IMG/VR virus record: IMGVR_UViG_3300037047_000246 | Length of the DNA stretch: 64,000 bases | Direction: 5' to 3' (one strand) | DNA from: a virus | Taxonomy: Duplodnaviria; Caudoviricetes | Shown here: piece after piece, positions 4,285-64,000 of the stretch | How the letters are laid out: every line of letters begins with the position of its first letter | How positions within the stretch are numbered: the first letter of the stretch is position 1 | Made by a program: the position numbers and the translations under genes | Notes under the pieces: model-generated | Told to the model about the DNA's origin: nothing | Seen by the model: the letters and a program-made list of their open reading frames with translations, nothing else | Database searches by the model: none

Positions 4285-7158
4285 ATGCAACTTGCCCAAG
4301 CTGACGATCGAGTCACCGTACAACGCCCTTGGTTTAGCGGTTTCGGGTTTCACCTGGTTCAGAACGTCGACCAATTTCGCAAGCTGGTGGATATTTGTAT
4401 ACAGAGGGGATTGTGTTCGCTCGACGTCGAGTCTACAGGGCTCGACAACAGGGTGTACCAGGACGCTTATTTCGAAGACGGCAAAAAGACCCGCCACGGC
4501 ATCAGAACCATCGATCGAATCGTTGGTCTATGCATGTCATTCGACGGGCAGAACGGCTACTACATCCCACTGACGCATGAGCCAGAAGACTCAGGCAACC
4601 TACCTTGGGATCCGGTGTGCGACGAGTTGACGCGGTTGGTGAACAACTGCAAAATCATATTCCACGGCGGCAAATATGACAAAGAGATGCTGCTGCCGTT
4701 GGTGAATCGCGAGTACTGGAAGGCAGACGAGCACGAAGACACGATGCTTCTGGCCAAGGTGATAAACCCGCTCAAAGGTATGCCGGCCGGCTTGAAACCG
4801 CTGACCAAGATTCACTTCGGCATAGAGATGATCGAGCTCGACGACCTGTTCACGCACGAGAAAAAAGAGCAGCTTCGCAAGGAGAAAAAGCGGTACAACT
4901 TCGCGCTGCTGCACCCTAAAGAAGGGCTTGAGTACGGCTGCTCGGACGGCATATTCACTTACAAGTTGTGGTTTGCCCTGAAGGACAAACTCCAAGGGCA
5001 CGACATGATGATGTACAACTTGGAGAAGTCCTTTTGCAACGTCGTGCAGAAGATGGAGCGCAACCGGGTCCACATTGATGTGAGTCGCGTAGAGCAGCTG
5101 TCAGCAGAGTGCGACGCTATGCTCAAGCTAACTGGCGATGCGGTCAGAGACATAATCGAGTCGCGCACTGGAAAGACGGGCAGATGGAGGACCCTGAACG
5201 TGGGTTCGCCGAAGCAGCTGTCCATGGCTCTGCTGACGGACCCGGAGGGTCTGTGTCTGAAACCTACCAAATTCATGTTGGGGGAGGATGATCAGTATGC
5301 GGACGCGCTGTCCGGCGATAGCGAAGAGAACGAAGAGGAGGACGACTCCGGCGTGCAGAAGCAGTACACGCTAAAGGACGAGGCCCTCAAGTCCATGGAC
5401 GCCGCATACGGCAAGGCTTACGGCGTTGTGTTGCACGGTGAAACAGACAAAGCCGGCAAACCGAAGACGCAAAGCCTGTTCTACCTGGTCATTGAATTCA
5501 GACACTATCAGAAAATGAAGGGGTCGTTCACCGACAAGCTGATGCAGTCTCACGACAAGTATGGGGACGTGAGGCCGGTGTTCAATCAGATGGGGACCGA
5601 CACCACGCGCCTTTCGTCGAAAGCCGGCAAAATCGCAGACGGCTTCTCCGGCATCAACTTCCAGGGCATCCCGAGAGACTCTGACGACGACAAGCCTGAA
5701 CTGTTCAAGCAAATCCGCACTTGCATCATCCCGAGGCCCGGCAAATTCTTGGTGAAACTGGACTTCGCTGGAGAGGAACTGAGGGTTGTGTGCAACCTGT
5801 CAGGCGACCCTATTTGGACCAGGTCTTTCTTGCACGAAGACGGGGACGTGCACAGCATCACCTCTCGCACCCTGTTCGGCAAAAGCGAAGTGTCTAAAGA
5901 CGAGCGCAACCGGGGCAAACGCTGCAACTTTGCTTTCATCTACGGAGGAGGAGCTGGCGCAATCTCCAGGAACGTCGGCTGCTCAGTTGAAGATGGCTCC
6001 AGGCACATGTCCAATCTCCGGGCCGCAGTCCCGGTGCTGATGGGGTATGTGGATCACCAGAAAGAGTTTGCGCGCAAGCACAAATGCGTATACACGGCTT
6101 TTGGGCGGCGCATCCCGATACCCACCATAGACTCCCCGATTCGCGCCATACGGGCGAAGGCGGAGCGATGCGCCATCAACTACACAATCCAGGCCACGTC
6201 GGCCGACATACTGAAGTTCGCGATGTGTCTTGTCGACAAGAAGATCCGAGAAATGGGTTGGGACGACAAGATCAAATACGTGATGACGGTGCATGATGAA
6301 GTTGTGTACGAAATCGAGCCGGAGCTTTTGCAAGAAGCGGTGCGAAAGCTCGACGAGTGGATGACGTACCCGTGGAAGCTTCCGAAGGCCCACGGCAGGG
6401 ACTGGGAAGTGCCGCTTCTGACTGAGCCCGGAATCGATGTCAACTGGAAGGCGCGCTTCGACTATTTCAAGATGGTGGACGGCATTCCGGCCGATCCCAA
6501 GGACGTGGTAGACGGGGTCTTCAAAGGCAAGTTGAAGAAAGACGAATACTACGACAACGGGCGAATGTTCCAGAAGATCCCAGAGTTTCTTGCTGAGTGG
6601 ATCAAGAGAGAGGATGGGGGAGAGGCGCAGCACCAAAGCAACCCGGCGACGCCAAAGCTCGTGGCGCCACAAGCTTTGGCGTCGCCTGCGGAGCAGATTG
6701 CCAAAGAGTCCGCGGAAGCCCGCTCCGACAAGGCTAACGACCCGGGAAAAAGCCGCGCCAGCGCGGCCGACCTCAGCCTCGACATAGGAGCGCCTTCGCT
6801 CAACATCAACGTGTCTCTGGACGAGCCTGACTCAAAACCTGAACCTGCAAAGCTGCACGAGCCAGCCGCCGAGACTCGCGACCAAACGGCCGCCGACTTG
6901 GCCCCGTCTCCGCAGCCGGACTACCATGTCGAGCCGGAGCCAAAAACCAGGGGCAACGGCGAAGTGTTCAGGTGGGTCATAGGATCTGTGCCGTCGGAAT
7001 CGGCTATGCGCAGACTGCACGCAGCGTGCATTCTGGCTGAAGGCGAGATTCCCATCCGCATAGTCAACCGCAGAGGCGACATTCTTGTTGGGGAATCTGA
7101 AAACATCCTAGTCGATCCTAGCAAATTCAAAATTGTGGTTGAGCTTTTCGGAATCTGA
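4285..7158 (+). CDS. polA: Family A DNA polymerase with 3'-5' exonuclease and about 200-aa C-terminal extension
   Basis: ExoI LDVESTG; motif A LDFAGEELRV; motif B RNRGKRCNFAFIYG (Phe at the E. coli 762-equivalent position); motif C TVHDEVV. Confidence 0.95.
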   Translation: MQLAQADDRVTVQRPWFSGFGFHLVQNVDQFRKLVDICIQRGLCSLDVESTGLDNRVYQDAYFEDGKKTRHGIRTIDRIVGLCMSFDGQNGYYIPLTHEPEDSGNLPWDPVCDELTRLVNNCKIIFHGGKYDKEMLLPLVNREYWKADEHEDTMLLAKVINPLKGMPAGLKPLTKIHFGIEMIELDDLFTHEKKEQLRKEKKRYNFALLHPKEGLEYGCSDGIFTYKLWFALKDKLQGHDMMMYNLEKSFCNVVQKMERNRVHIDVSRVEQLSAECDAMLKLTGDAVRDIIESRTGKTGRWRTLNVGSPKQLSMALLTDPEGLCLKPTKFMLGEDDQYADALSGDSEENEEEDDSGVQKQYTLKDEALKSMDAAYGKAYGVVLHGETDKAGKPKTQSLFYLVIEFRHYQKMKGSFTDKLMQSHDKYGDVRPVFNQMGTDTTRLSSKAGKIADGFSGINFQGIPRDSDDDKPELFKQIRTCIIPRPGKFLVKLDFAGEELRVVCNLSGDPIWTRSFLHEDGDVHSITSRTLFGKSEVSKDERNRGKRCNFAFIYGGGAGAISRNVGCSVEDGSRHMSNLRAAVPVLMGYVDHQKEFARKHKCVYTAFGRRIPIPTIDSPIRAIRAKAERCAINYTIQATSADILKFAMCLVDKKIREMGWDDKIKYVMTVHDEVVYEIEPELLQEAVRKLDEWMTYPWKLPKAHGRDWEVPLLTEPGIDVNWKARFDYFKMVDGIPADPKDVVDGVFKGKLKKDEYYDNGRMFQKIPEFLAEWIKREDGGEAQHQSNPATPKLVAPQALASPAEQIAKESAEARSDKANDPGKSRASAADLSLDIGAPSLNINVSLDEPDSKPEPAKLHEPAAETRDQTAADLAPSPQPDYHVEPEPKTRGNGEVFRWVIGSVPSESAMRRLHAACILAEGEIPIRIVNRRGDILVGESENILVDPSKFKIVVELFGI

Positions 7159-36360: not shown

Positions 36361-36585
36361 TCACGACTCCTGCACGTCCATGACGTCCATTATGCTGCGC
36401 GCATTGTCCCTGAAATACTCCAAATCGTCGATCCTCTGTTTAAGATCTTCAATTTCGCCAAGCTTTTTTCTGAGATCTCCGATTTGGCCGATGAGACTGG
36501 CAATCTTAGCTTGCATTGACCGTACGGCGCGTCCAGAAGCACGCCGTACGACTGCTGATTTTTTGCGCGTCGTCCGTTTCTTCAC
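36361..36585 (-). CDS. small coiled-coil protein (tag VMDVQES)
   Basis: 74-aa ORF. Confidence 0.7.
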   Translation of the reverse strand: MKKRTTRKKSAVVRRASGRAVRSMQAKIASLIGQIGDLRKKLGEIEDLKQRIDDLEYFRDNARSIMDVMDVQES

Positions 36586-36703: not shown

Positions 36704-37147
36704 TTAACTTCCCATCACTTCCTCGGCGACCTTGCTGGTCAGCCGCTCGAAGTCCACAGACCTCTCCAGCAAGTTCCACAGCGGCTCGGCGGCGCATTCC
36801 ATCAGGAAAGACTCATATCTCCATCGCTGGTCTGTCCGGTTATGCTCGTCATATCTTGGCTCCAAGCGGCCGAGCTCTTTCTTGGTCTGACGCAGTGACA
36901 CCGTCATCATCACTATATTGCCGTACAGCTCCGGCAGCACAGTGCAGTGTGCTTGCGCCAAAATTCCGCTACTGCCTTGCCACGGCACGTGTTTCTCCGC
37001 TGAGAAGGTGACGGTAAACACGTCAGAATTGGATCCTGCGCCGTGCACGAACACGTTGAACGGGCAGTTGTCTACTGTGCTGGCGAGGCGCTTGAAGTCT
37101 TCGTCCATGCACGACACGACACTGCTTTTGAGGCGCCGGAAGTTCAC
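36704..37147 (-). CDS. hypothetical protein (tag AEEVMGS)
   Basis: GTGA-coupled start at 37147. Confidence 0.7.
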   Translation of the reverse strand: MNFRRLKSSVVSCMDEDFKRLASTVDNCPFNVFVHGAGSNSDVFTVTFSAEKHVPWQGSSGILAQAHCTVLPELYGNIVMMTVSLRQTKKELGRLEPRYDEHNRTDQRWRYESFLMECAAEPLWNLLERSVDFERLTSKVAEEVMGS

Positions 37148-37755
37148 GTCGCGCACCCATTCAAAGCCCCGACTGCTATCTGGTGTCGCCAGTCCATCGT
37201 GGCTGGGACACTGAGCGCGCAGCGCGAACACACAACGCAGTTGCCATTGTCTGCCCACTCGTGTCGGGTCTGCTTCTTGTTCAAAACCTTGGCTGGGCTC
37301 GCCACCCGCCAGCAGCTCTTGCCGACTGTGTGGTGTGCGGCGTACTGTGCGACGACTTCAGATGTCACCCTCCACATTTTCCCTATCTTCTTGCCTGGCA
37401 GGCGCCCTTCCCGCAACATCTTGACCATGGTCTGCGCGCATAGCCCGAGACGCTTTGCAGCCTCGGCTGCGCTCAGTCCGGCCTCAGTCTGCCGCGGCGC
37501 TACACGCAGCCCTGCGAAATTGCCTTCTGGCTGCAATCCAGCCATGGCCGCAAGCATTGCCTTAGCAGCCCAAGCCGTGCGGGCTGCTGCCGGCATGAGT
37601 CGCTTCACAGTGGGCAGAACCTCTTGTTCCCAGCCTGGCTTGGCCGCGACTGCGCGGCGCTGCATGCCCAGCAGGTTTCCGTGAAGCAGGTTTGCGTCTT
37701 TGACCGCTGCAGCCACCTGCTTGCGCAGCTTTGCGGCTCCGCGGCTCGTCTTCAT
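37144..37755 (-). CDS. Excisionase/MerR-type HTH_17 DNA-binding domain protein
   Basis: LSAAEAAKRLGLCAQTMVKMLREGRLPGKKIGKMWRV. Confidence 0.8.
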   Translation of the reverse strand: MKTSRGAAKLRKQVAAAVKDANLLHGNLLGMQRRAVAAKPGWEQEVLPTVKRLMPAAARTAWAAKAMLAAMAGLQPEGNFAGLRVAPRQTEAGLSAAEAAKRLGLCAQTMVKMLREGRLPGKKIGKMWRVTSEVVAQYAAHHTVGKSCWRVASPAKVLNKKQTRHEWADNGNCVVCSRCALSVPATMDWRHQIAVGALNGCAT

Positions 37756-38159
37756 GAGTCCTGCACCTGCCTGGTCACCAGATCCTGCAAAAACTGCTGG
37801 AGCAGTTTTTTGGATGGGTTCTTCATGTACTTGATTGAACTCCCACCCTGCTGGATTGCTTCAAGCTGCACTTGTTCGGACGGCTGCTTGATGAACCGCA
37901 CAGCGGTCCAGTTTTGCTTGACTGCTGCAAGCTGTACTTGTTCGGACGGCTTATTGATGAACTGGATTGAGAAGCCGTTCTGTCGGACTGCCGCGAGCTG
38001 GACCTTTTCGGACGGGTTCTCGATGAACTGAGTCGCCTCACTGTTCTGCCGGACTGCTGTAAGCTGAAATATCTCTGAACACAGACCGAGCGCGCAGCGC
38101 AGACCTGACTCGAATGCTTCTTCAGGAGTCAGCCCGTGCTCTTGCAGCAGCTCTTTCAT
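37752..38159 (-). CDS. DUF4116-like 22-aa repeat protein (tag TRQVQDS)
   Basis: Four repeats QLxAVxQNxxxIxFIxxPSExV (66-bp degenerate DNA repeats). Confidence 0.8.
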   Translation of the reverse strand: MKELLQEHGLTPEEAFESGLRCALGLCSEIFQLTAVRQNSEATQFIENPSEKVQLAAVRQNGFSIQFINKPSEQVQLAAVKQNWTAVRFIKQPSEQVQLEAIQQGGSSIKYMKNPSKKLLQQFLQDLVTRQVQDS

Positions 38160-38278
38160 GAGTCATGAACCTTCCGCAGGATGCACCGGGATTCGGGACA
38201 CTCCGGATCGTGGCAGAATTCGATCACTCCGCCCGCTCCGATCGAATACGAATGGCCGACAGGCACGTTCTCAGTCAT
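38156..38278 (-). CDS. small Cys-rich ORF (tag LRKVHDS); natural start probably TTG 38369 across a one-base frameshift
   Basis: Own translation MTENVPVGHSYSIGAGGVIEFCHDPECPESRCILRKVHDS; ATGA coupling downstream. Confidence 0.6.
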   Translation of the reverse strand: MTENVPVGHSYSIGAGGVIEFCHDPECPESRCILRKVHDS

Positions 38279-38365
38279 GATGATGTGCAGCGTCAAAGCA
38301 GACCCCGCGGAGCACGGATTGTGATGCGTATCGGGTGGGCAATCTTGATCATGTGACCGGGGGTT

Positions 38366-38602
38366 TCAAGACTGCATGATTCGGCGCACGAGCTGCCGAT
38401 TGCAATCAGAGTACACTTGGTCTCGCTTCAAATCTGCTGGCTGCGGCTTCCACCCGACGCAATCGCGCGGGTCTGTGTCGTCCGGCGCCGCCACTCGGCA
38501 CTCGGCGCCGCACTGGGTGCATCGCCAAATGAGCACGCACTTGCGCCGCTTTTTGCGCCACCCGATGCGATGGCGCGCCATCTGCCAGTCGTGGTTGAGC
38601 AT
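38366..38602 (-). CDS. small zinc-finger protein (tag VRRIMQS)
   Basis: HDW...WRCTQCG. Confidence 0.7.
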   Translation of the reverse strand: MLNHDWQMARHRIGWRKKRRKCVLIWRCTQCGAECRVAAPDDTDPRDCVGWKPQPADLKRDQVYSDCNRQLVRRIMQS

Positions 38603-38638
38603 GATTGGCGCTACTTCGTGCTGGCGGCGATTTCCGGC

Positions 38639-38902
38639 TCATATTGAGTGGATGTACATCACGAGAGCTTCCTCGTACGTAATTGGTACGATTGAATCTA
38701 AACTGTGCATTGCTCGCCACTGCGTAGCGCAGTCCTTGCACAGCGCATTAGGGCGCATAACCAGACTACCAAACCTCCCATCAATCGGTAGAAGTGTGCG
38801 CCACCATTCGACGGCAGGCTTACCGCATCGTTCTCCTTCCAGTTCAGGCCCCTCTACCAGAAGAATGACGCAACATCTGTCTGTGGGTAATCTTGCAATC
38901 AT
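38639..38902 (-). CDS. small Cys-containing protein (tag VMYIHSI)
   Basis: 87-aa ORF. Confidence 0.65.
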   Translation of the reverse strand: MIARLPTDRCCVILLVEGPELEGERCGKPAVEWWRTLLPIDGRFGSLVMRPNALCKDCATQWRAMHSLDSIVPITYEEALVMYIHSI

Positions 38903-38946
38903 TCAGTGATGCTCGTGTGGTCGCTAGTCGGTCTTGCGCTTGGACT

Positions 38947-39172
38947 TCATATGTCTTTTCCCATGCCCCATCCGGACTTGAACTCTTCGAACTCCTGCTC
39001 AGTGCCGCCGCCGGAGACTTCGAAAGCTTCGCGGATTTCGGCGTCCTCAGGGTCGTCTGAAAGAACAGAATCGCGGCGAATGCGGCAGAATGCGCAAGAG
39101 CAAAGCTCAGACCGAACTTCCATCAGTATCTTGCCAAGCTCGTTGCGGCCTTCGCCACCGACCTGCCCCCAA
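38947..39172 (-). pseudogene. NADAR (YbiA-like) C-terminal fragment
   Basis: WGQVGGEGRNELGKILMEVRSEL is the conserved NADAR C-terminal motif (FWG...G.N.LGK.LM.VR). Confidence 0.88.
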
Positions 39173-39232
39173 AGGTGGTGAGTCGTGAGGCAGCTTGTAA
39201 AACTCTGACTTGAAATTGGTACTGTTGGCAGA

Positions 39233-39541
39233 ATGAACAGAGATTGCACCAAAGGAATTGCTGGCTGTAAGTGCGCAGCTGGCTTCAAGCCAGAAGAGCA
39301 GTGCCCGGAGTGCCGGGAGGACGGAAGAAGGTATTCATACTGCATGTGTCCGCCAGATTTCGAACACGAGCGTCCTGTTAACACGGCCTCGGCCTCTGTC
39401 GAGGACAAATTGGCCGCTGCCAAAAGTTCGCTGCTTGAATTGTCTGAATACTCTGGTCCGCTGGCCGTTGAGCTTAGGGCCCGCAAAGTCATGCTGATAA
39501 AATCCCTCGAAATACTGATGAAACATCCTGAGAGCAAGTGA
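39233..39541 (+). CDS. Cys-rich hypothetical protein within inverted segment
   Basis: 102-aa ORF; TGTAAA at 39196-39201. Confidence 0.65.
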   Translation: MNRDCTKGIAGCKCAAGFKPEEQCPECREDGRRYSYCMCPPDFEHERPVNTASASVEDKLAAAKSSLLELSEYSGPLAVELRARKVMLIKSLEILMKHPESK

Positions 39542-39583
39542 GCGTGCCCCAAACTGAGCGCATGCCGGAAAGTAGAGTCCGGC

Positions 39584-39808
39584 ATGCGCTCATTTGTCGC
39601 CATTTTTATGCTCTTGGCAGGGTGCGGATCGCAAGACTCCCGACCTGCTTACACTTGCATGAAGGCACTCGACGCGTCTCGATGCGGCAGACACACCGCG
39701 TGGGAATGCACTCACGGCGTGGTGCCGGACGGCTGCACAGAAGCTGACTTGGGGCATCTTGAAGGATACGATTGGGTGGTGTGCTGCCCGCCAGGGCAGA
39801 CGCCGTGA
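39584..39808 (+). CDS. small Cys-rich lipoprotein within inverted segment
   Basis: Signal peptide with lipobox LAGC. Confidence 0.7.
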   Translation: MRSFVAIFMLLAGCGSQDSRPAYTCMKALDASRCGRHTAWECTHGVVPDGCTEADLGHLEGYDWVVCCPPGQTP

Positions 39809-39837
39809 CAAATCGCGTCTCAGCTGCTTTCTCTGAT

Positions 39838-39843
39838 TGTAAA
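39838..39843 (+). promoter_or_regulatory. YGTA(A/T)N promoter box, structured RNA/NADAR
   Basis: TGTAAA, 7 nt before the predicted RNA 5' end. Confidence 0.5.
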
Positions 39844-39850
39844 CTTGCTG

Positions 39851-39965
39851 ACACCTGAACGGTCTAACATGGGCGCGACTCTGCCTGCGGCGGAAATCTG
39901 TGCAGGTCCCGAGTACGAGGCACAAGCGAAGTTTTAACCCGGTGCCGGTTGCGGCCGGTCAGGTG
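39851..39965 (+). ncRNA. candidate structured RNA / 5' leader of the NADAR gene
   Basis: Closing stem 39852-39862 with 39955-39965 (10/11 pairs), nested stems GGCGC/GTGCC, ACTC/GAGT, CCTGC/GCAGG; begins 7 nt after TGTAAA. Confidence 0.5.
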
Positions 39966-39969
39966 ACTC

Positions 39970-40316
39970 ATGACCACGATCGATTCTTTCAGCGGAGAGT
40001 TTGAATTTCTGTCGAATTTTTACCCGTGCCAGGTCATGTTTGACGGCGTGGTGTGGAAAAGCGTGGAGCATGCGTACCAAGCAGCCAAGACAGACAGCTG
40101 CAAAGAGCGCACCGCAATCTACGGAGCGACGTCGCCAGCCAGAGCCAAACGGCTTGGCGCAAAAGTGCGCCTGCGCAAGGGGTGGGATCAGCTCAGGTTA
40201 GGCGTGATGAAAGAACTTGTCCGAGACAAGTTTGTGCGCAGTGCCGAGCTGCGGCAAAAACTTATCTACACCCAGCACGCGCAGCTTGTGGAAGGTAACA
40301 CATGGGGCGACAGGTT
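39970..40316 (+). pseudogene. NADAR (YbiA-like) N-terminal 115 codons, broken by inversion
   Basis: FLSNFY, SVEHAYQAAK, AKRLG, WD.....VM...V..KF, LVEGNTWGDR, then similarity is lost. Confidence 0.92.
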
Positions 40317-40501
40317 ACTAGCACGGCGGGGCGGACTTCGTACTGGCTCTCCTGCAGTCCGTTCACGTCGCACAACTCTGCGATGAACTCGTTGGCGGCT
40401 TGCTCGGTATTGAACATCGTAGTTTCCTCACCAGTCCCGCATGTGCATGCCGAGTGCTCGTCGTCGCCCTTGAACCACACAATGAATCCAGGAATCTCCA
40501 T
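40317..40501 (-). CDS. hypothetical protein whose 3' end was replaced by the inversion
   Basis: MEIPGFIVWF...; flipping the segment gives a short end ...RPAVLVGGES-stop. Confidence 0.6.
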
Positions 40502-40531
40502 GTCACCCCTCCCCTCGGACCTGGAAGCACA

Positions 40532-40723
40532 TCATATGGTCATCACATGCTTGACACATTGCTCGTCGCAAAACAAGACTCCATTGAGCTGCCATAGACG
40601 GCTGTCCGTGTTCGGGTCAGAGCAATTGGTGATCACTGCAGCTGCACAATTCCGGCACTGCCACAGTCGCCAGTTTCCATACTTGGTGTCACCACTCATT
40701 CTGACGATCCAGTTGTGCAACAT
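40532..40723 (-). CDS. small zinc-finger protein (tag VKHVMTI)
   Basis: HNW...WQCRNC. Confidence 0.7.
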   Translation of the reverse strand: MLHNWIVRMSGDTKYGNWRLWQCRNCAAAVITNCSDPNTDSRLWQLNGVLFCDEQCVKHVMTI

Positions 40724-40788
40724 TTATTTGCACATCTCAGCTTGCTCCGGGGCCGTGCGATCCGATATGCAGCATAACACAGATGTGA

Positions 40789-41040
40789 TCAGCATTCGGT
40801 TTTGTTCTGTTTCCAGCGGCGCAAGAAGCGTCTGTCAGGGCGGCTTCCCTCGTGCACTCCGCCGTGCCCAGCGAGCCGCCGGCAGACGTAGCCTAGATGC
40901 TCCGCCCCGCATTGGTCGTCGCCCGCATAAGGCGGCTTGCCCAGCCGGACGCGGTCCTTGACCTCTTTGGCCGATCGCTTGGCCGAAGCCCGGCAGCGGG
41001 TCGCGTGCTTGATCTGATTTGTCTTCTTGCGCGTTTTCAT
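40789..41040 (-). CDS. basic hypothetical protein
   Basis: ATGA-coupled; C...C...H..H. Confidence 0.55.
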   Translation of the reverse strand: MKTRKKTNQIKHATRCRASAKRSAKEVKDRVRLGKPPYAGDDQCGAEHLGYVCRRLAGHGGVHEGSRPDRRFLRRWKQNKTEC

Positions 41041-41372
41041 CCGTCCATTACCTGGCTGACAATGACGTAGTTATTCATCTCTCGCGCAAGCATACAATGC
41101 TCAAAGGCAGCCGCATGGCTGCCATGCAACTTGGGGTCCATACCGACCATTTGCACAAATTTCCGCCGCGTGTTTTCGTCCATACCCTTGCAGGTATTGA
41201 CGAACGACAGCAGGCCGGCCATCTGGAACTCGAACCATGTTGGGTCCTCTAGCGCAGGCGAGCCGTCATGATCGAATTTGGTTGGGCCGTGCTTGGCGCT
41301 CCACTTAAAGCTGTGGCCGCACGCGGCGCAGACCCATTTGCACCCTTCGCACTTCCAGTTGTGCGACGACAT
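41037..41372 (-). CDS. small zinc-finger protein (tag VSQVMDG)
   Basis: HNWKC..C.WVCAACG. Confidence 0.7.
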   Translation of the reverse strand: MSSHNWKCEGCKWVCAACGHSFKWSAKHGPTKFDHDGSPALEDPTWFEFQMAGLLSFVNTCKGMDENTRRKFVQMVGMDPKLHGSHAAAFEHCMLAREMNNYVIVSQVMDG

Positions 41373-42473
41373 TCAACGCACCTCGTGCATCTCGGGCATC
41401 GGGCGTGCCATATATTCGATGCAGCGCAGCAACTTCAGGTCGGAAACCCCTACCAGAGAGCCATGTCCGCGCAAGTTAATAGCAAATCCAGGAGCCATTT
41501 GCGGCGTGAGTTCGAGCACAGCGTCGGCTTCTCTCACGTCGCCACAGGCCAGCACATCGCGCGTCATAGGAGCCCCTAAGACGTAGGTGTGCGAGTGCAG
41601 CATAAATCGCACGAACGGCAGGCGATTGAAAAGTCGGATACTGATTGGCGAATCGACCGACGGCTTGGCATCGCCCCAGTACCCTGTGCGCTGCTCGTCC
41701 AGCAAGCTCACCGGAACGAATCCGCCCGCGCCGATGTCGCGCTTGTCTATGTTGCGCCGAGACATGTAGGCAATGCCACCCAGGCGGAAGGCGGGGAACC
41801 CGCTCTCGCATCGGAAGGACGCATTGCCCATCAGGCGCTCCGGATTAACCGCAGCATGTATCAATTCGTGAAACGTCTTGGCATGACTGCGGACGATATT
41901 GAAGAACTCTTCCACCTCGTCCGGCACGCCTACCTGATGACAGGCGGCGCGCCACAAGTCGGACTGCTCGCTGCCCAAGCACGTTGAGCTGACGCGCGTA
42001 CCGTGCTGCAGCTCTGTCATCCTGGCAGCGAGCGCCCCGGCGACGCGCTCGACATCTAGCTCGTTCGACAGGAACACATTGCCAAGCGGATCCATCAGCG
42101 TGGTGGACACCTTGCTTTCGGCCTTGCGCAGCTCTAGCATCAGGCCACTGTGGGATTTGAGCGCGCGGGCGATCAAATCGCCAAAAGAGTAGCGCCCTTC
42201 GTCGTTGCGCTTGGTTGTGATCAGCAGCGTGTGCGGCGCGAGCCGCTTGATGTCGTTGATCAGCTTGGGCCGGCTGTTGTCGACGTCCGGCATCCACAGC
42301 ACAGTGTCGTGGTCCGGCAGGGCCTTACATATGCGCTCCAGCGTCGCCCAGTCGCCGCCATTGTGCACGGTAGCGATATGTGCGAGGTGTTGCGCGAGCA
42401 GGTTGACGTATCCGGATGGCTTGCCTGTTTCGAAGTTGCCGCCGATGATCAGCATGAGATGATTTACACTCAA
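41373..42473 (-). CDS. class II aldolase/adducin-like domain protein with extra N-terminal domain
   Basis: GNASFR, KPSVDS, MLHSH, LRGHGSL motifs in the C-terminal half. Confidence 0.7.
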   Translation of the reverse strand: MSVNHLMLIIGGNFETGKPSGYVNLLAQHLAHIATVHNGGDWATLERICKALPDHDTVLWMPDVDNSRPKLINDIKRLAPHTLLITTKRNDEGRYSFGDLIARALKSHSGLMLELRKAESKVSTTLMDPLGNVFLSNELDVERVAGALAARMTELQHGTRVSSTCLGSEQSDLWRAACHQVGVPDEVEEFFNIVRSHAKTFHELIHAAVNPERLMGNASFRCESGFPAFRLGGIAYMSRRNIDKRDIGAGGFVPVSLLDEQRTGYWGDAKPSVDSPISIRLFNRLPFVRFMLHSHTYVLGAPMTRDVLACGDVREADAVLELTPQMAPGFAINLRGHGSLVGVSDLKLLRCIEYMARPMPEMHEVR

Positions 42474-62037: not shown

Positions 62038-63999
62038 CTACGGCAAAATCACTCCAGCCGCTGCTGCCTTGATCTTCAGATAATCGGCCATCTGGGTGCG
62101 TTCGCCAGCCTGCAGTTCTCTGTTGTACTGGTAGACGGCAAACACATCAGCACGCGCTGGGTTAAACCCGTGCCCGCCCGTGCAGAGCGTGAGGCCGCCT
62201 GGATTGAGAGCACCCGCGTCGCCCGTGGCGAACGCTCCGGCGTCTTGCGCCAGCTTGGACGACACGCCGTCGAGCACGTAGTCGATGATGTGCCACGCAC
62301 CGTCCACCAGCGATTTGGTGACTCCCGCCCCTCCAGCCGTCAGCGTCACGTTAGGTCCGCCTCCCGCGCTGGTGAGAAGCGAACCAAAGTTGGCGTCTTT
62401 GCCGTCTATCAGCCGGGCGTAGGTGCCGGTCGAAGTCCATTTGGCGACGATGAAGCCGTGCACCGGCTGGTTCAGCGTAAAGTTGGCGGTCTTCAAGGAG
62501 TCGCTGACGCCGTCGAACCGAAGCACGCCGCCCGTACCCTGCGCGACCCATCCAGGTCGATTGATGTCGGTAGCCTGCTCGATGTGTCTGCCCAGTCCGG
62601 TGTTGTCGGTCGCTCGCGAAGCCGAGATGCACTCGACCGTCACGTCGTCCACCCACACCGACCGGCCAGCCGCCATGTTGAGACAGCGGAACTGGAGCTG
62701 GGTGTCGCCCGCCTGCGTGACCACGTCGAAGTATTGCCAGTCGGTGGATGCCGTGCCGATCCACTTCTGCGCGCCCATGTAAATGTCCATATAGGCGTTG
62801 CCATCGCCCCTGCACCAGCCCCGCACGCGGTACCACAGGCCTGTCGTAAGAACGTTCTGGTAGATCCCCCCATTGCCCGACACCCAGTCCTGTCGAATCG
62901 ACTGGGTGCCGCTGTGCTTGATGGACGTGTCTTTGACCGGAGTCGTGGTGGCGTACGAGGTCCAGGCTCCGACACCAGCCGTCTCCATGTTGCCGTCCAC
63001 CAGCGCGGGCACCGGGCCGGGTAGAACGACGTTGTTGACGCTGCTGCCCTCCCAGCCTATGACGAGACCGGGCAGCATGCTGGGCGTCCACAGATCGGAC
63101 CGCACATCCACTGGCCGCGCCGGCTGCAGGTAAACCAGCGGGGTGGCGGAAGCCGTTTTGGCCGTGCCGACGAACGTGACGAACCCGTATGGAGGGGCCG
63201 CGTGGCTGACCTTGCCGGCCGTATCGGCCAGGTACAGCGCGGACCCTTGGGTGGCGGTACCGGTTTCCATGTTGCACGTCGCCACGCCGGTCATCGCAAC
63301 CGCGTTGGTCGCCACCTTGACCCCCACCACCACGGCCTCTTCGGCCGTCCCGTCGGCTTGAGACTTCGCCATGTTGTCGCTGCTGTCGATGTACACGACG
63401 TCGCCCACCGCGACAGTGCCGGTCTCGCCTGACGTGGGGACGGGAACGGCCGAGTGCGTGTGCAGCTGGGCGGCGTCGGAAGTCACGCCAGCCGTCAGCG
63501 TGCCAAGGTTGGCTGCCGTCACGTTCGCGCTGACGGCAGCGCTTTGGATCTGGAATCTGGCAGAGGCGTTGTTCGGCAGATTGATGTTGGCCGCCCCAGA
63601 AGCGCCGAGCAACCCTCCCGGCACCGACAGCGACCAGGTGTTGGTCGCGCCCAGCGCTATGCTGGAAGTGCCTGAGTTGCCAATCAAGATCAACCCACTT
63701 GTACCGCCCCCGCCTGCCGCCCCAGCCGCCAAGGTCAGGTTGCCGCCGTTGCCAGTCGAAGCCGTGCCGGCCGCGATGGCCACGTTGCCGCCCGCGGTCG
63801 CGCCGGAGCCGCCGGTGATCTGCACCGCGCCGCCGGTCGACCCGCCTCCGCCCAGCAAACTGACCGCTCCGCCAGCCGCGTTTTCGGATTCGGCCGTCTG
63901 GCCGGCCAGCGTTATGCTCCACTGGCTGTCGCCGTCGGCAAAGCCGAACGTGGTATGCGCCCCATGCAGAGCGCTCGGATTGGTGGCGTACCAAACGCT
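62038..63999 (-). CDS. Virion/tail protein with carbohydrate-binding (CBM-like) and ConA/LamG-like modules, 5'-truncated
   Basis: Frame open to the window end; Gly/Ala/Thr repeats, LVDGNMET...VDDVTV, FDGVSDSL...HIIDY. Confidence 0.75.
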   Translation of the reverse strand, partial: SVWYATNPSALHGAHTTFGFADGDSQWSITLAGQTAESENAAGGAVSLLGGGGSTGGAVQITGGSGATAGGNVAIAAGTASTGNGGNLTLAAGAAGGGGTSGLILIGNSGTSSIALGATNTWSLSVPGGLLGASGAANINLPNNASARFQIQSAAVSANVTAANLGTLTAGVTSDAAQLHTHSAVPVPTSGETGTVAVGDVVYIDSSDNMAKSQADGTAEEAVVVGVKVATNAVAMTGVATCNMETGTATQGSALYLADTAGKVSHAAPPYGFVTFVGTAKTASATPLVYLQPARPVDVRSDLWTPSMLPGLVIGWEGSSVNNVVLPGPVPALVDGNMETAGVGAWTSYATTTPVKDTSIKHSGTQSIRQDWVSGNGGIYQNVLTTGLWYRVRGWCRGDGNAYMDIYMGAQKWIGTASTDWQYFDVVTQAGDTQLQFRCLNMAAGRSVWVDDVTVECISASRATDNTGLGRHIEQATDINRPGWVAQGTGGVLRFDGVSDSLKTANFTLNQPVHGFIVAKWTSTGTYARLIDGKDANFGSLLTSAGGGPNVTLTAGGAGVTKSLVDGAWHIIDYVLDGVSSKLAQDAGAFATGDAGALNPGGLTLCTGGHGFNPARADVFAVYQYNRELQAGERTQMADYLKIKAAAAGVILP

Positions 64000-64000
64000 G

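Follow-up and report, generated by a model that had tools for sequence, protein, structure and literature searches.

Invertible segments of phages, the G, C and Min segments (Mu Gin, P1 Cin), are flanked by inverted repeats, have a dedicated invertase and occur in both orientations. Phage genomes are also rearranged by illegitimate (homology-independent) recombination, for example by topoisomerase or gyrase strand exchange. Invertons, including intragenic ones, are likewise defined by flanking inverted repeats, a dedicated invertase and the coexistence of both orientations (bioRxiv 10.1101/2023.03.11.532203). Phage NADAR proteins (AdfN) act against DarTG1 and strip the guanines of DNA of ADP-ribose (PMC11543638, PMC11825919), while members of the YbiA subfamily can act as antitoxins to other ADP-ribosyltransferases (PMC11125620). 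The NADARs associated with DarT1 use a catalytic Asp instead of the YbiA-type Glu and also have a conserved Lys and an N-terminal extension; phage NADARs are said to be typified by His (PMC11543638).

In the phage DNA examined here, a 1,144-bp segment is reversed and separates the two halves of a NADAR gene. As in the invertons and in the Mu Gin and P1 Cin segments, a short stretch of DNA is turned around with a breakpoint inside a coding sequence, changing the proteins that can be made. None of the three features that define invertons was found, however: two of them fail and the third, coexistence of the orientations, is unseen in the contigs, so that the rearrangement resembles an intragenic inverton only in outcome. 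The closest fit is ordinary illegitimate recombination, which shares with this locus a junction homology of 1 bp or less, a clean reciprocal exchange and a gene hit at an arbitrary position, although this phage differs from the topoisomerase- or gyrase-mediated cases in that neither Ku nor a type II topoisomerase A-subunit was detected in it. We estimate at roughly three in four the probability that the segment reflects a recent, one-off, homology-independent inversion of 1,144 bp that is fixed in the sampled population, disabled NADAR and gave an orphan gene a new tail.

The divided NADAR gene and the inverted segment

The window, meaning the whole 64,000-nt stretch of DNA that was analysed, corresponds to one end of a virus record of 362,524 bp (IMGVR_UViG_3300037047_000246), read on the reverse strand; the record has direct terminal repeats and is rated complete. 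The genome was assembled from metagenomes, and the phage is from metagenomes of groundwater and coal. The window crosses the ends of the record: its final 1,148 bases (62853-64000) fall at the opposite end of the contig.

The N-terminal half of NADAR (115 codons plus TT) lies on the plus strand at 39970-40316. It matches Pfam NADAR (PF08719) at positions 9-122 of 163 (E 2.8e-16; 60.6 bits against a cut-off of 35.1), phrog_1017 at positions 6-124 of 170, E. coli YbiA (2b3w) at residues 21-127 and the solved NADAR 8bau at residues 21-129. After ...GNTWGDR the ORF continues for 23 unrelated codons to a stop at 40384-40386. The C-terminal half (T plus 74 codons and the stop) is on the minus strand at 39172-38947 and encodes WGQVGGEGRNELGKILMEVR..., running from W117 through the WG...NELGKILMEVR helix to a 50-aa acidic tail. 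This half matches Pfam NADAR at positions 145-162 of 163 with 19.3 bits, which alone is under the cut-off, and phrog_1017 at positions 126-154 of 170; searched alone against PDB sequences, it gave no match. On phrog_1017 the two halves abut (124 and 126), and on Pfam NADAR they flank a variable stretch. A genome-wide profile scan found these two halves and no second NADAR. The whole domain is thus not present in one frame, being split across opposite strands at 40316 and 39172.

Reverse complementing 39173-40316 in silico gave a single 573-nt ORF of 190 aa, without loss or gain of a base where NADAR is rejoined. The same flip closed the ORF that begins at 40501 as ...PAVLVGGES-stop. The first-pass annotation had proposed an inversion with these boundaries that splits a NADAR gene and had claimed the closure of the second ORF; its coordinates and arithmetic proved right, and so did its family assignment, with the N-terminal half scoring above the family cut-off and the conserved residues present.

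The rebuilt protein was compared with intact homologues. The nearest of these are whole proteins of 142-156 aa with 65-71% identity, and the rebuilt NADAR aligns with whole homologues without a gap through the junction over 137-140 aa (residues 1-140, 66-71% identity). In the multiple alignment, two of the homologues (P0040 and P0072) share all 11 residues that span the junction (EGNTWGDRFWG). The acidic C-terminal extension of ~50 aa (38947-39099, minus strand; …DDPEDAEIREAFEV…EQEFEEF…) is absent from the nearest homologues. We considered whether it could be a duplicate, fused to NADAR, of the small ORF found after NADAR in relatives and rejected this, as the two are without similarity.

A comparison with related genomes, as the first-pass annotation had suggested, used three Logan contigs from related phages (L002-L004). 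In these, homologues of 41040-41372, 39584-39808, NADAR, 38639-38902 and 36361-36585 all lie on a single strand, and their order is the one that the window takes once flipped. Since the five genes are co-directional only in the flipped order, the collinear form is ancestral and the inversion in the window is derived. No close relative above 71% protein identity was found. A DNA search with 5 kb around the site against 50,697 phage records gave no match, and an exact 33-mer from the flank of the C-terminal half retrieved no further contig and no near-identical un-inverted genome from the viral and JGI metagenome contig collections, in which the window's own records may be missing.

The two junctions, left at 39172/39173 and right at 40316/40317, are defined to within 1 bp, the A at 39173 pairing with the T at 40316. 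No inverted or direct repeats were detected at the junctions, where local alignments score no better than those of random pairs of places in the window; the best inverted alignment across the junctions scores 7-9, and 30%-86% of random window pairs reach such scores. The repeat list of the window also holds no pair at the two junctions. The 1-bp ambiguity and the absence of inverted repeats claimed in the first-pass annotation thus both stand, and its observation that no recombinase gene is nearby can be widened: Resolvase (PF00239) and Phage_integrase (PF00589) have zero matches in the whole 362,524-bp genome, while control genomes do match. A further argument, that the segment is a plus-strand island in a minus-strand run, stood in part. 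As the sequence is now arranged, the 74-aa gene described below and the N-terminal half of NADAR face opposite to the neighbouring genes in the window, and the island is borne out for at least 3 kb on either side by the gene calls of the sources; as the sole argument, however, it is weak, because a crude strand map gives ~80 strand runs genome-wide.

Occurrence of the inverted form in public assemblies

Seven public sequencing runs contain part of the stretch, three of them (X5-X7) only small shares of it, and the four best (X1-X4) were compared as Logan contigs. In X1-X3, which are groundwater and coal metagenomes from three studies, single contigs of 51-87 kb (depth 23-62) span 38000-41500 with zero differences from the window. 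In X4 (depth ~6), the left junction is bridged, by 41 nt, in a 450-nt contig and the right junction, by at least as much, in a separate contig of 4 kb; X4 is without contig cover at 39058-39131 and 39582-39941, gaps that are uninformative at this depth. Two JGI contigs, one of 4.5 kb from sample 3300043245 and one of 23 kb from sample 3300043246, match the window with 100% identity, the inversion included, as does the Logan contig SRR13051708_4769. The inverted contigs pass both junctions unbroken and unbranched.

The un-inverted allele was not found in the contigs of the four runs and two JGI samples, a comparison in which minority forms are hidden by contigs. Its predicted products, of 190 aa or 66 aa, are absent among 5.8 billion proteins. 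In contrast, the truncated 138-aa NADAR and the re-tailed 79-aa orphan protein are present, each as a single-member cluster, with the next NADAR 71% identical. As the inverted form is the sole form seen in every sample with the phage, we conclude that it is fixed or nearly fixed in the sampled population; the runs may share one sampling campaign and may in part be the genome's own source, and "fixed" here means fixed in one phage population.

Consequences for NADAR and the genes touched or carried

The inversion probably abolishes the activity of the enzyme. In an alignment with 8bau, residues E33, K40 and E108 match its E43, K50 and E125, which function in distal-ribose and phosphate binding and in catalysis (PMC11543638). 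D114 and W117 belong to the GDRFWG motif common to all homologues, and we infer from this motif that they are equivalent to D130 and W133, the pyrophosphate ligands. E33, K40, E108 and D114 are all in the N-terminal half, and the junction falls inside the D-R-F/W-G motif, between the Asp and the Trp. No ATG, GTG or TTG is in frame for ~60 codons upstream of the C-terminal half, in a stretch antisense to the 102-aa gene discussed below, and this half has no ribosome-binding context. The N-terminal half would be made with a nonsense tail of 23 residues. With the break between active-site residues, a C-terminal half without a start and no second NADAR in the genome, the enzyme is most likely dead. 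Both halves nevertheless contain no stop and retain every conserved residue, which indicates that the inversion is young.

The rebuilt 190-aa protein resembles the NADAR/YbiA family in having the full domain, the conserved Glu and Lys and the YbiA-type Glu, and may have been a YbiA-type N-glycosidase or ADP-ribosyl-base hydrolase, possibly serving as a counter-defence factor. It differs from the described members in being cut by the inversion, in carrying the YbiA-type Glu instead of the His of phage NADARs and in its 50-aa acidic tail. From the literature, a role against DarT1 is plausible (PMC11543638, PMC11825919), though with the YbiA-type Glu retained, a DarT1-specific role is only a guess. 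That the form with the disabled gene is the sole one in several samples suggests that NADAR is dispensable, or even costly, for the phage in its current host.

The same observation is compatible with a sweep, and the inversion could be real and fixed but selected, the loss of NADAR or a rewired expression of the two small genes and the re-tailed orphan gene being beneficial; alternatively, the N-terminal half or a two-piece NADAR could still work, and the genome elsewhere tolerates a working-looking two-piece LigA split like PDB 9hu3. A working two-piece NADAR is difficult to reconcile with a C-terminal half that has no start of its own, the in-frame ATG, GTG and TTG codons beginning only ~60 codons upstream and antisense to a gene, and with a break that parts active-site residues (PMC11543638). 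Fixation in one sampled population can also be drift or hitch-hiking. We regard a selected inversion or a NADAR that still works as unlikely, and favour a recent, one-off inversion that disabled the gene.

The second gene hit by the inversion is an orphan whose first 61 codons plus 2 nt lie on the minus strand at 40317-40501. The ORF now continues for 17 codons antisense to the N-terminal half of NADAR, to a stop at 40262-40264, so that the orphan gene would gain a new 17-residue tail. The two ORFs overlap convergently by 125 nt, and this overlap is an oddity made by the inversion. The displaced native 3´ end of the gene, which encodes (V)GGES followed by TGA, was located by translation of the flipped sequence and is on the plus strand at 39173-39188. 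A search of 5.8 billion proteins with the 40501 ORF returned only the ORF itself. Because the orphan gene has no homologues, its native C-terminus, and with it the second junction, cannot be checked. We also tried the ...GGES-stop ending as a fit to a C-terminal pattern of the genome (see below) and dropped it as too weak, since the pattern is not followed at positions -3 and -4; although no other final dipeptide is as frequent in the genome as ES, it ends only 9 of 374 crude gene calls. Annotators should note that the ORFs of 79 and 218 aa and the 138-aa "NADAR" called here are products of the rearrangement, not native proteins.

Two small Cys-rich ORFs are carried by the segment on the plus strand. 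The first, of 102 aa (39233-39541), is annotated as a gene by both JGI and Logan and has no family match in Pfam or PHROG. The second, of 74 aa (39584-39808), begins with a signal-peptide- and lipobox-like sequence (…FMLLAGC…) and may, judging from this start, be a phage lipoprotein. It has a homologue with 61% identity over 74 aa at L002 2240-2470, uncalled as a gene there, and also in L003 and L004; in these relatives the homologue is upstream of and co-directional with NADAR. Between the two small genes is a hairpin (39552-39595, plus strand; inverted repeat I2) with 18-bp arms that are 94% complementary, an 8-nt loop and a T-rich tract after it, which may be a terminator that moves with the segment; a simple terminator scan did not call it. 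In 38300-41200, a sigma-70 promoter scan returned zero sites, and terminator-like sites showed no excess over shuffles.

Two genes downstream of NADAR is a 203-aa protein (37147-37755, minus strand) whose DNA-binding domain is of the excisionase/HTH_17 type (phrog_1840, E 2.8e-06; the gene call of the source lists Pfam HTH_17). As the genome is without an integrase or invertase, this protein probably acts as a regulator rather than as a recombination directionality factor.

Origin of the inversion and other features of the genome

The first-pass annotation had offered a recent non-homologous inversion, a reversible switch and an assembly chimera as explanations. The first of these is supported by the whole homologues, the collinear relatives, the exact and gapless rejoining of the NADAR halves and the repeat-free junctions. 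Under this explanation, one break would have fallen inside NADAR codon 116 and the other four codons before the stop of the upstream orphan gene, and the two would have been rejoined in the opposite sense with no homology used. The reaction could have been breakage and reunion, or repair of two breaks, by host or chance functions; candidates are subunit exchange by a host topoisomerase or gyrase, end-joining after two nuclease cuts and a template switch during replication. At the NADAR junction, the only one open to a check, the exchange is clean, and this favours conservative breakage-reunion. Searches of the whole phage genome for a type II topoisomerase A-subunit and for Ku gave no match, and a phage without either would have needed host functions or chance repair. 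We also considered targeting of the breakpoints by the CRISPR array of the phage itself, which lies outside the window (G000:C1 213127-213966) and has 12 repeats of 36 nt and 11 spacers of 35-39 nt. This was rejected, since matches of the spacers to the phage's own genome are no longer than 14-18 nt and none is near 39173 or 40316. The locus is an example, at one-base resolution, of how a huge phage genome can be reshaped by a clean, repeat-free inversion.

A programmed, reversible switch would require a host recombinase or another enzyme to turn NADAR on and off at sites without repeats. The exactness of the NADAR junction, which rejoins to the base, and the undecayed state of both halves look as if the segment were able to flip back, a set of small accessory genes moves with it, and phage NADARs are counter-defence factors (PMC11825919). 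The junctions, however, have inverted repeats only at chance level, the phage genome encodes no serine or tyrosine recombinase, and the contigs of four runs and two JGI samples, unbranched at the junctions, hold one orientation only. No product of the ON form is in the protein collection, and the OFF state harms a second gene too. The switch proposed earlier is therefore unsupported, and we consider it very improbable. Narrower still is the version in which a host or other enzyme acts at cryptic sites and the sampled populations were all caught in the OFF state, to which we give hardly any credence. A new mechanism would be opened only if reads show flipping.

The remaining proposal, that the true genome is collinear and that an assembler or chimeric reads made the inversion, draws on the metagenomic assembly of the genome and on the chance that several of the runs are its very source, but is effectively refuted, and in our view next to negligible, given that Logan contigs from four runs and JGI assemblies of two samples, the products of different assemblers, agree 100% with both junctions bridged (depths 6-62), and that a k-mer graph cannot invert a segment or invent junctions in the absence of junction-spanning reads where there is no repeat.

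Elsewhere in the genome, the NAD-dependent DNA ligase is split between two genes that lie on opposite strands, at L013 2367-3191 (minus) and 5765-6898 (plus), corresponding to G000:C1 ~230866-231690 and 234264-235397. Between them are an acidic ORF and a 704-aa protein with REase_MTES_1575 and GNAT domains. One half has the adenylation and OB domains and matches LigA residues ~23-388, and the other has the Zn-finger, HhH and BRCT domains and matches LigA from ~residue 403; the division falls at the same point as in PDB 9hu3, a solved ligase of two subunits (chains A and B). We examined the arrangement as a second fresh inversion and rejected this. With its own start and stop for each half and the 9hu3-like split, LigA looks like an established two-piece enzyme and gives no evidence for recurrent inversion.

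Finally, we noted a peptide ending, V-x-x-V-[M/Q/H]-[E/D]-x-stop, that recurs on many small unrelated proteins genome-wide, with examples in the window at the stops 36361, 37752, 38156, 38366, 41037 and 42470. Crude calling gave 374 genes, of which 68 have V at position -4, 66 have V at -7 and 68 have M or Q at -3. Different genes use different codons for it, and the pattern is thus at the level of the peptide and not a common DNA signal.
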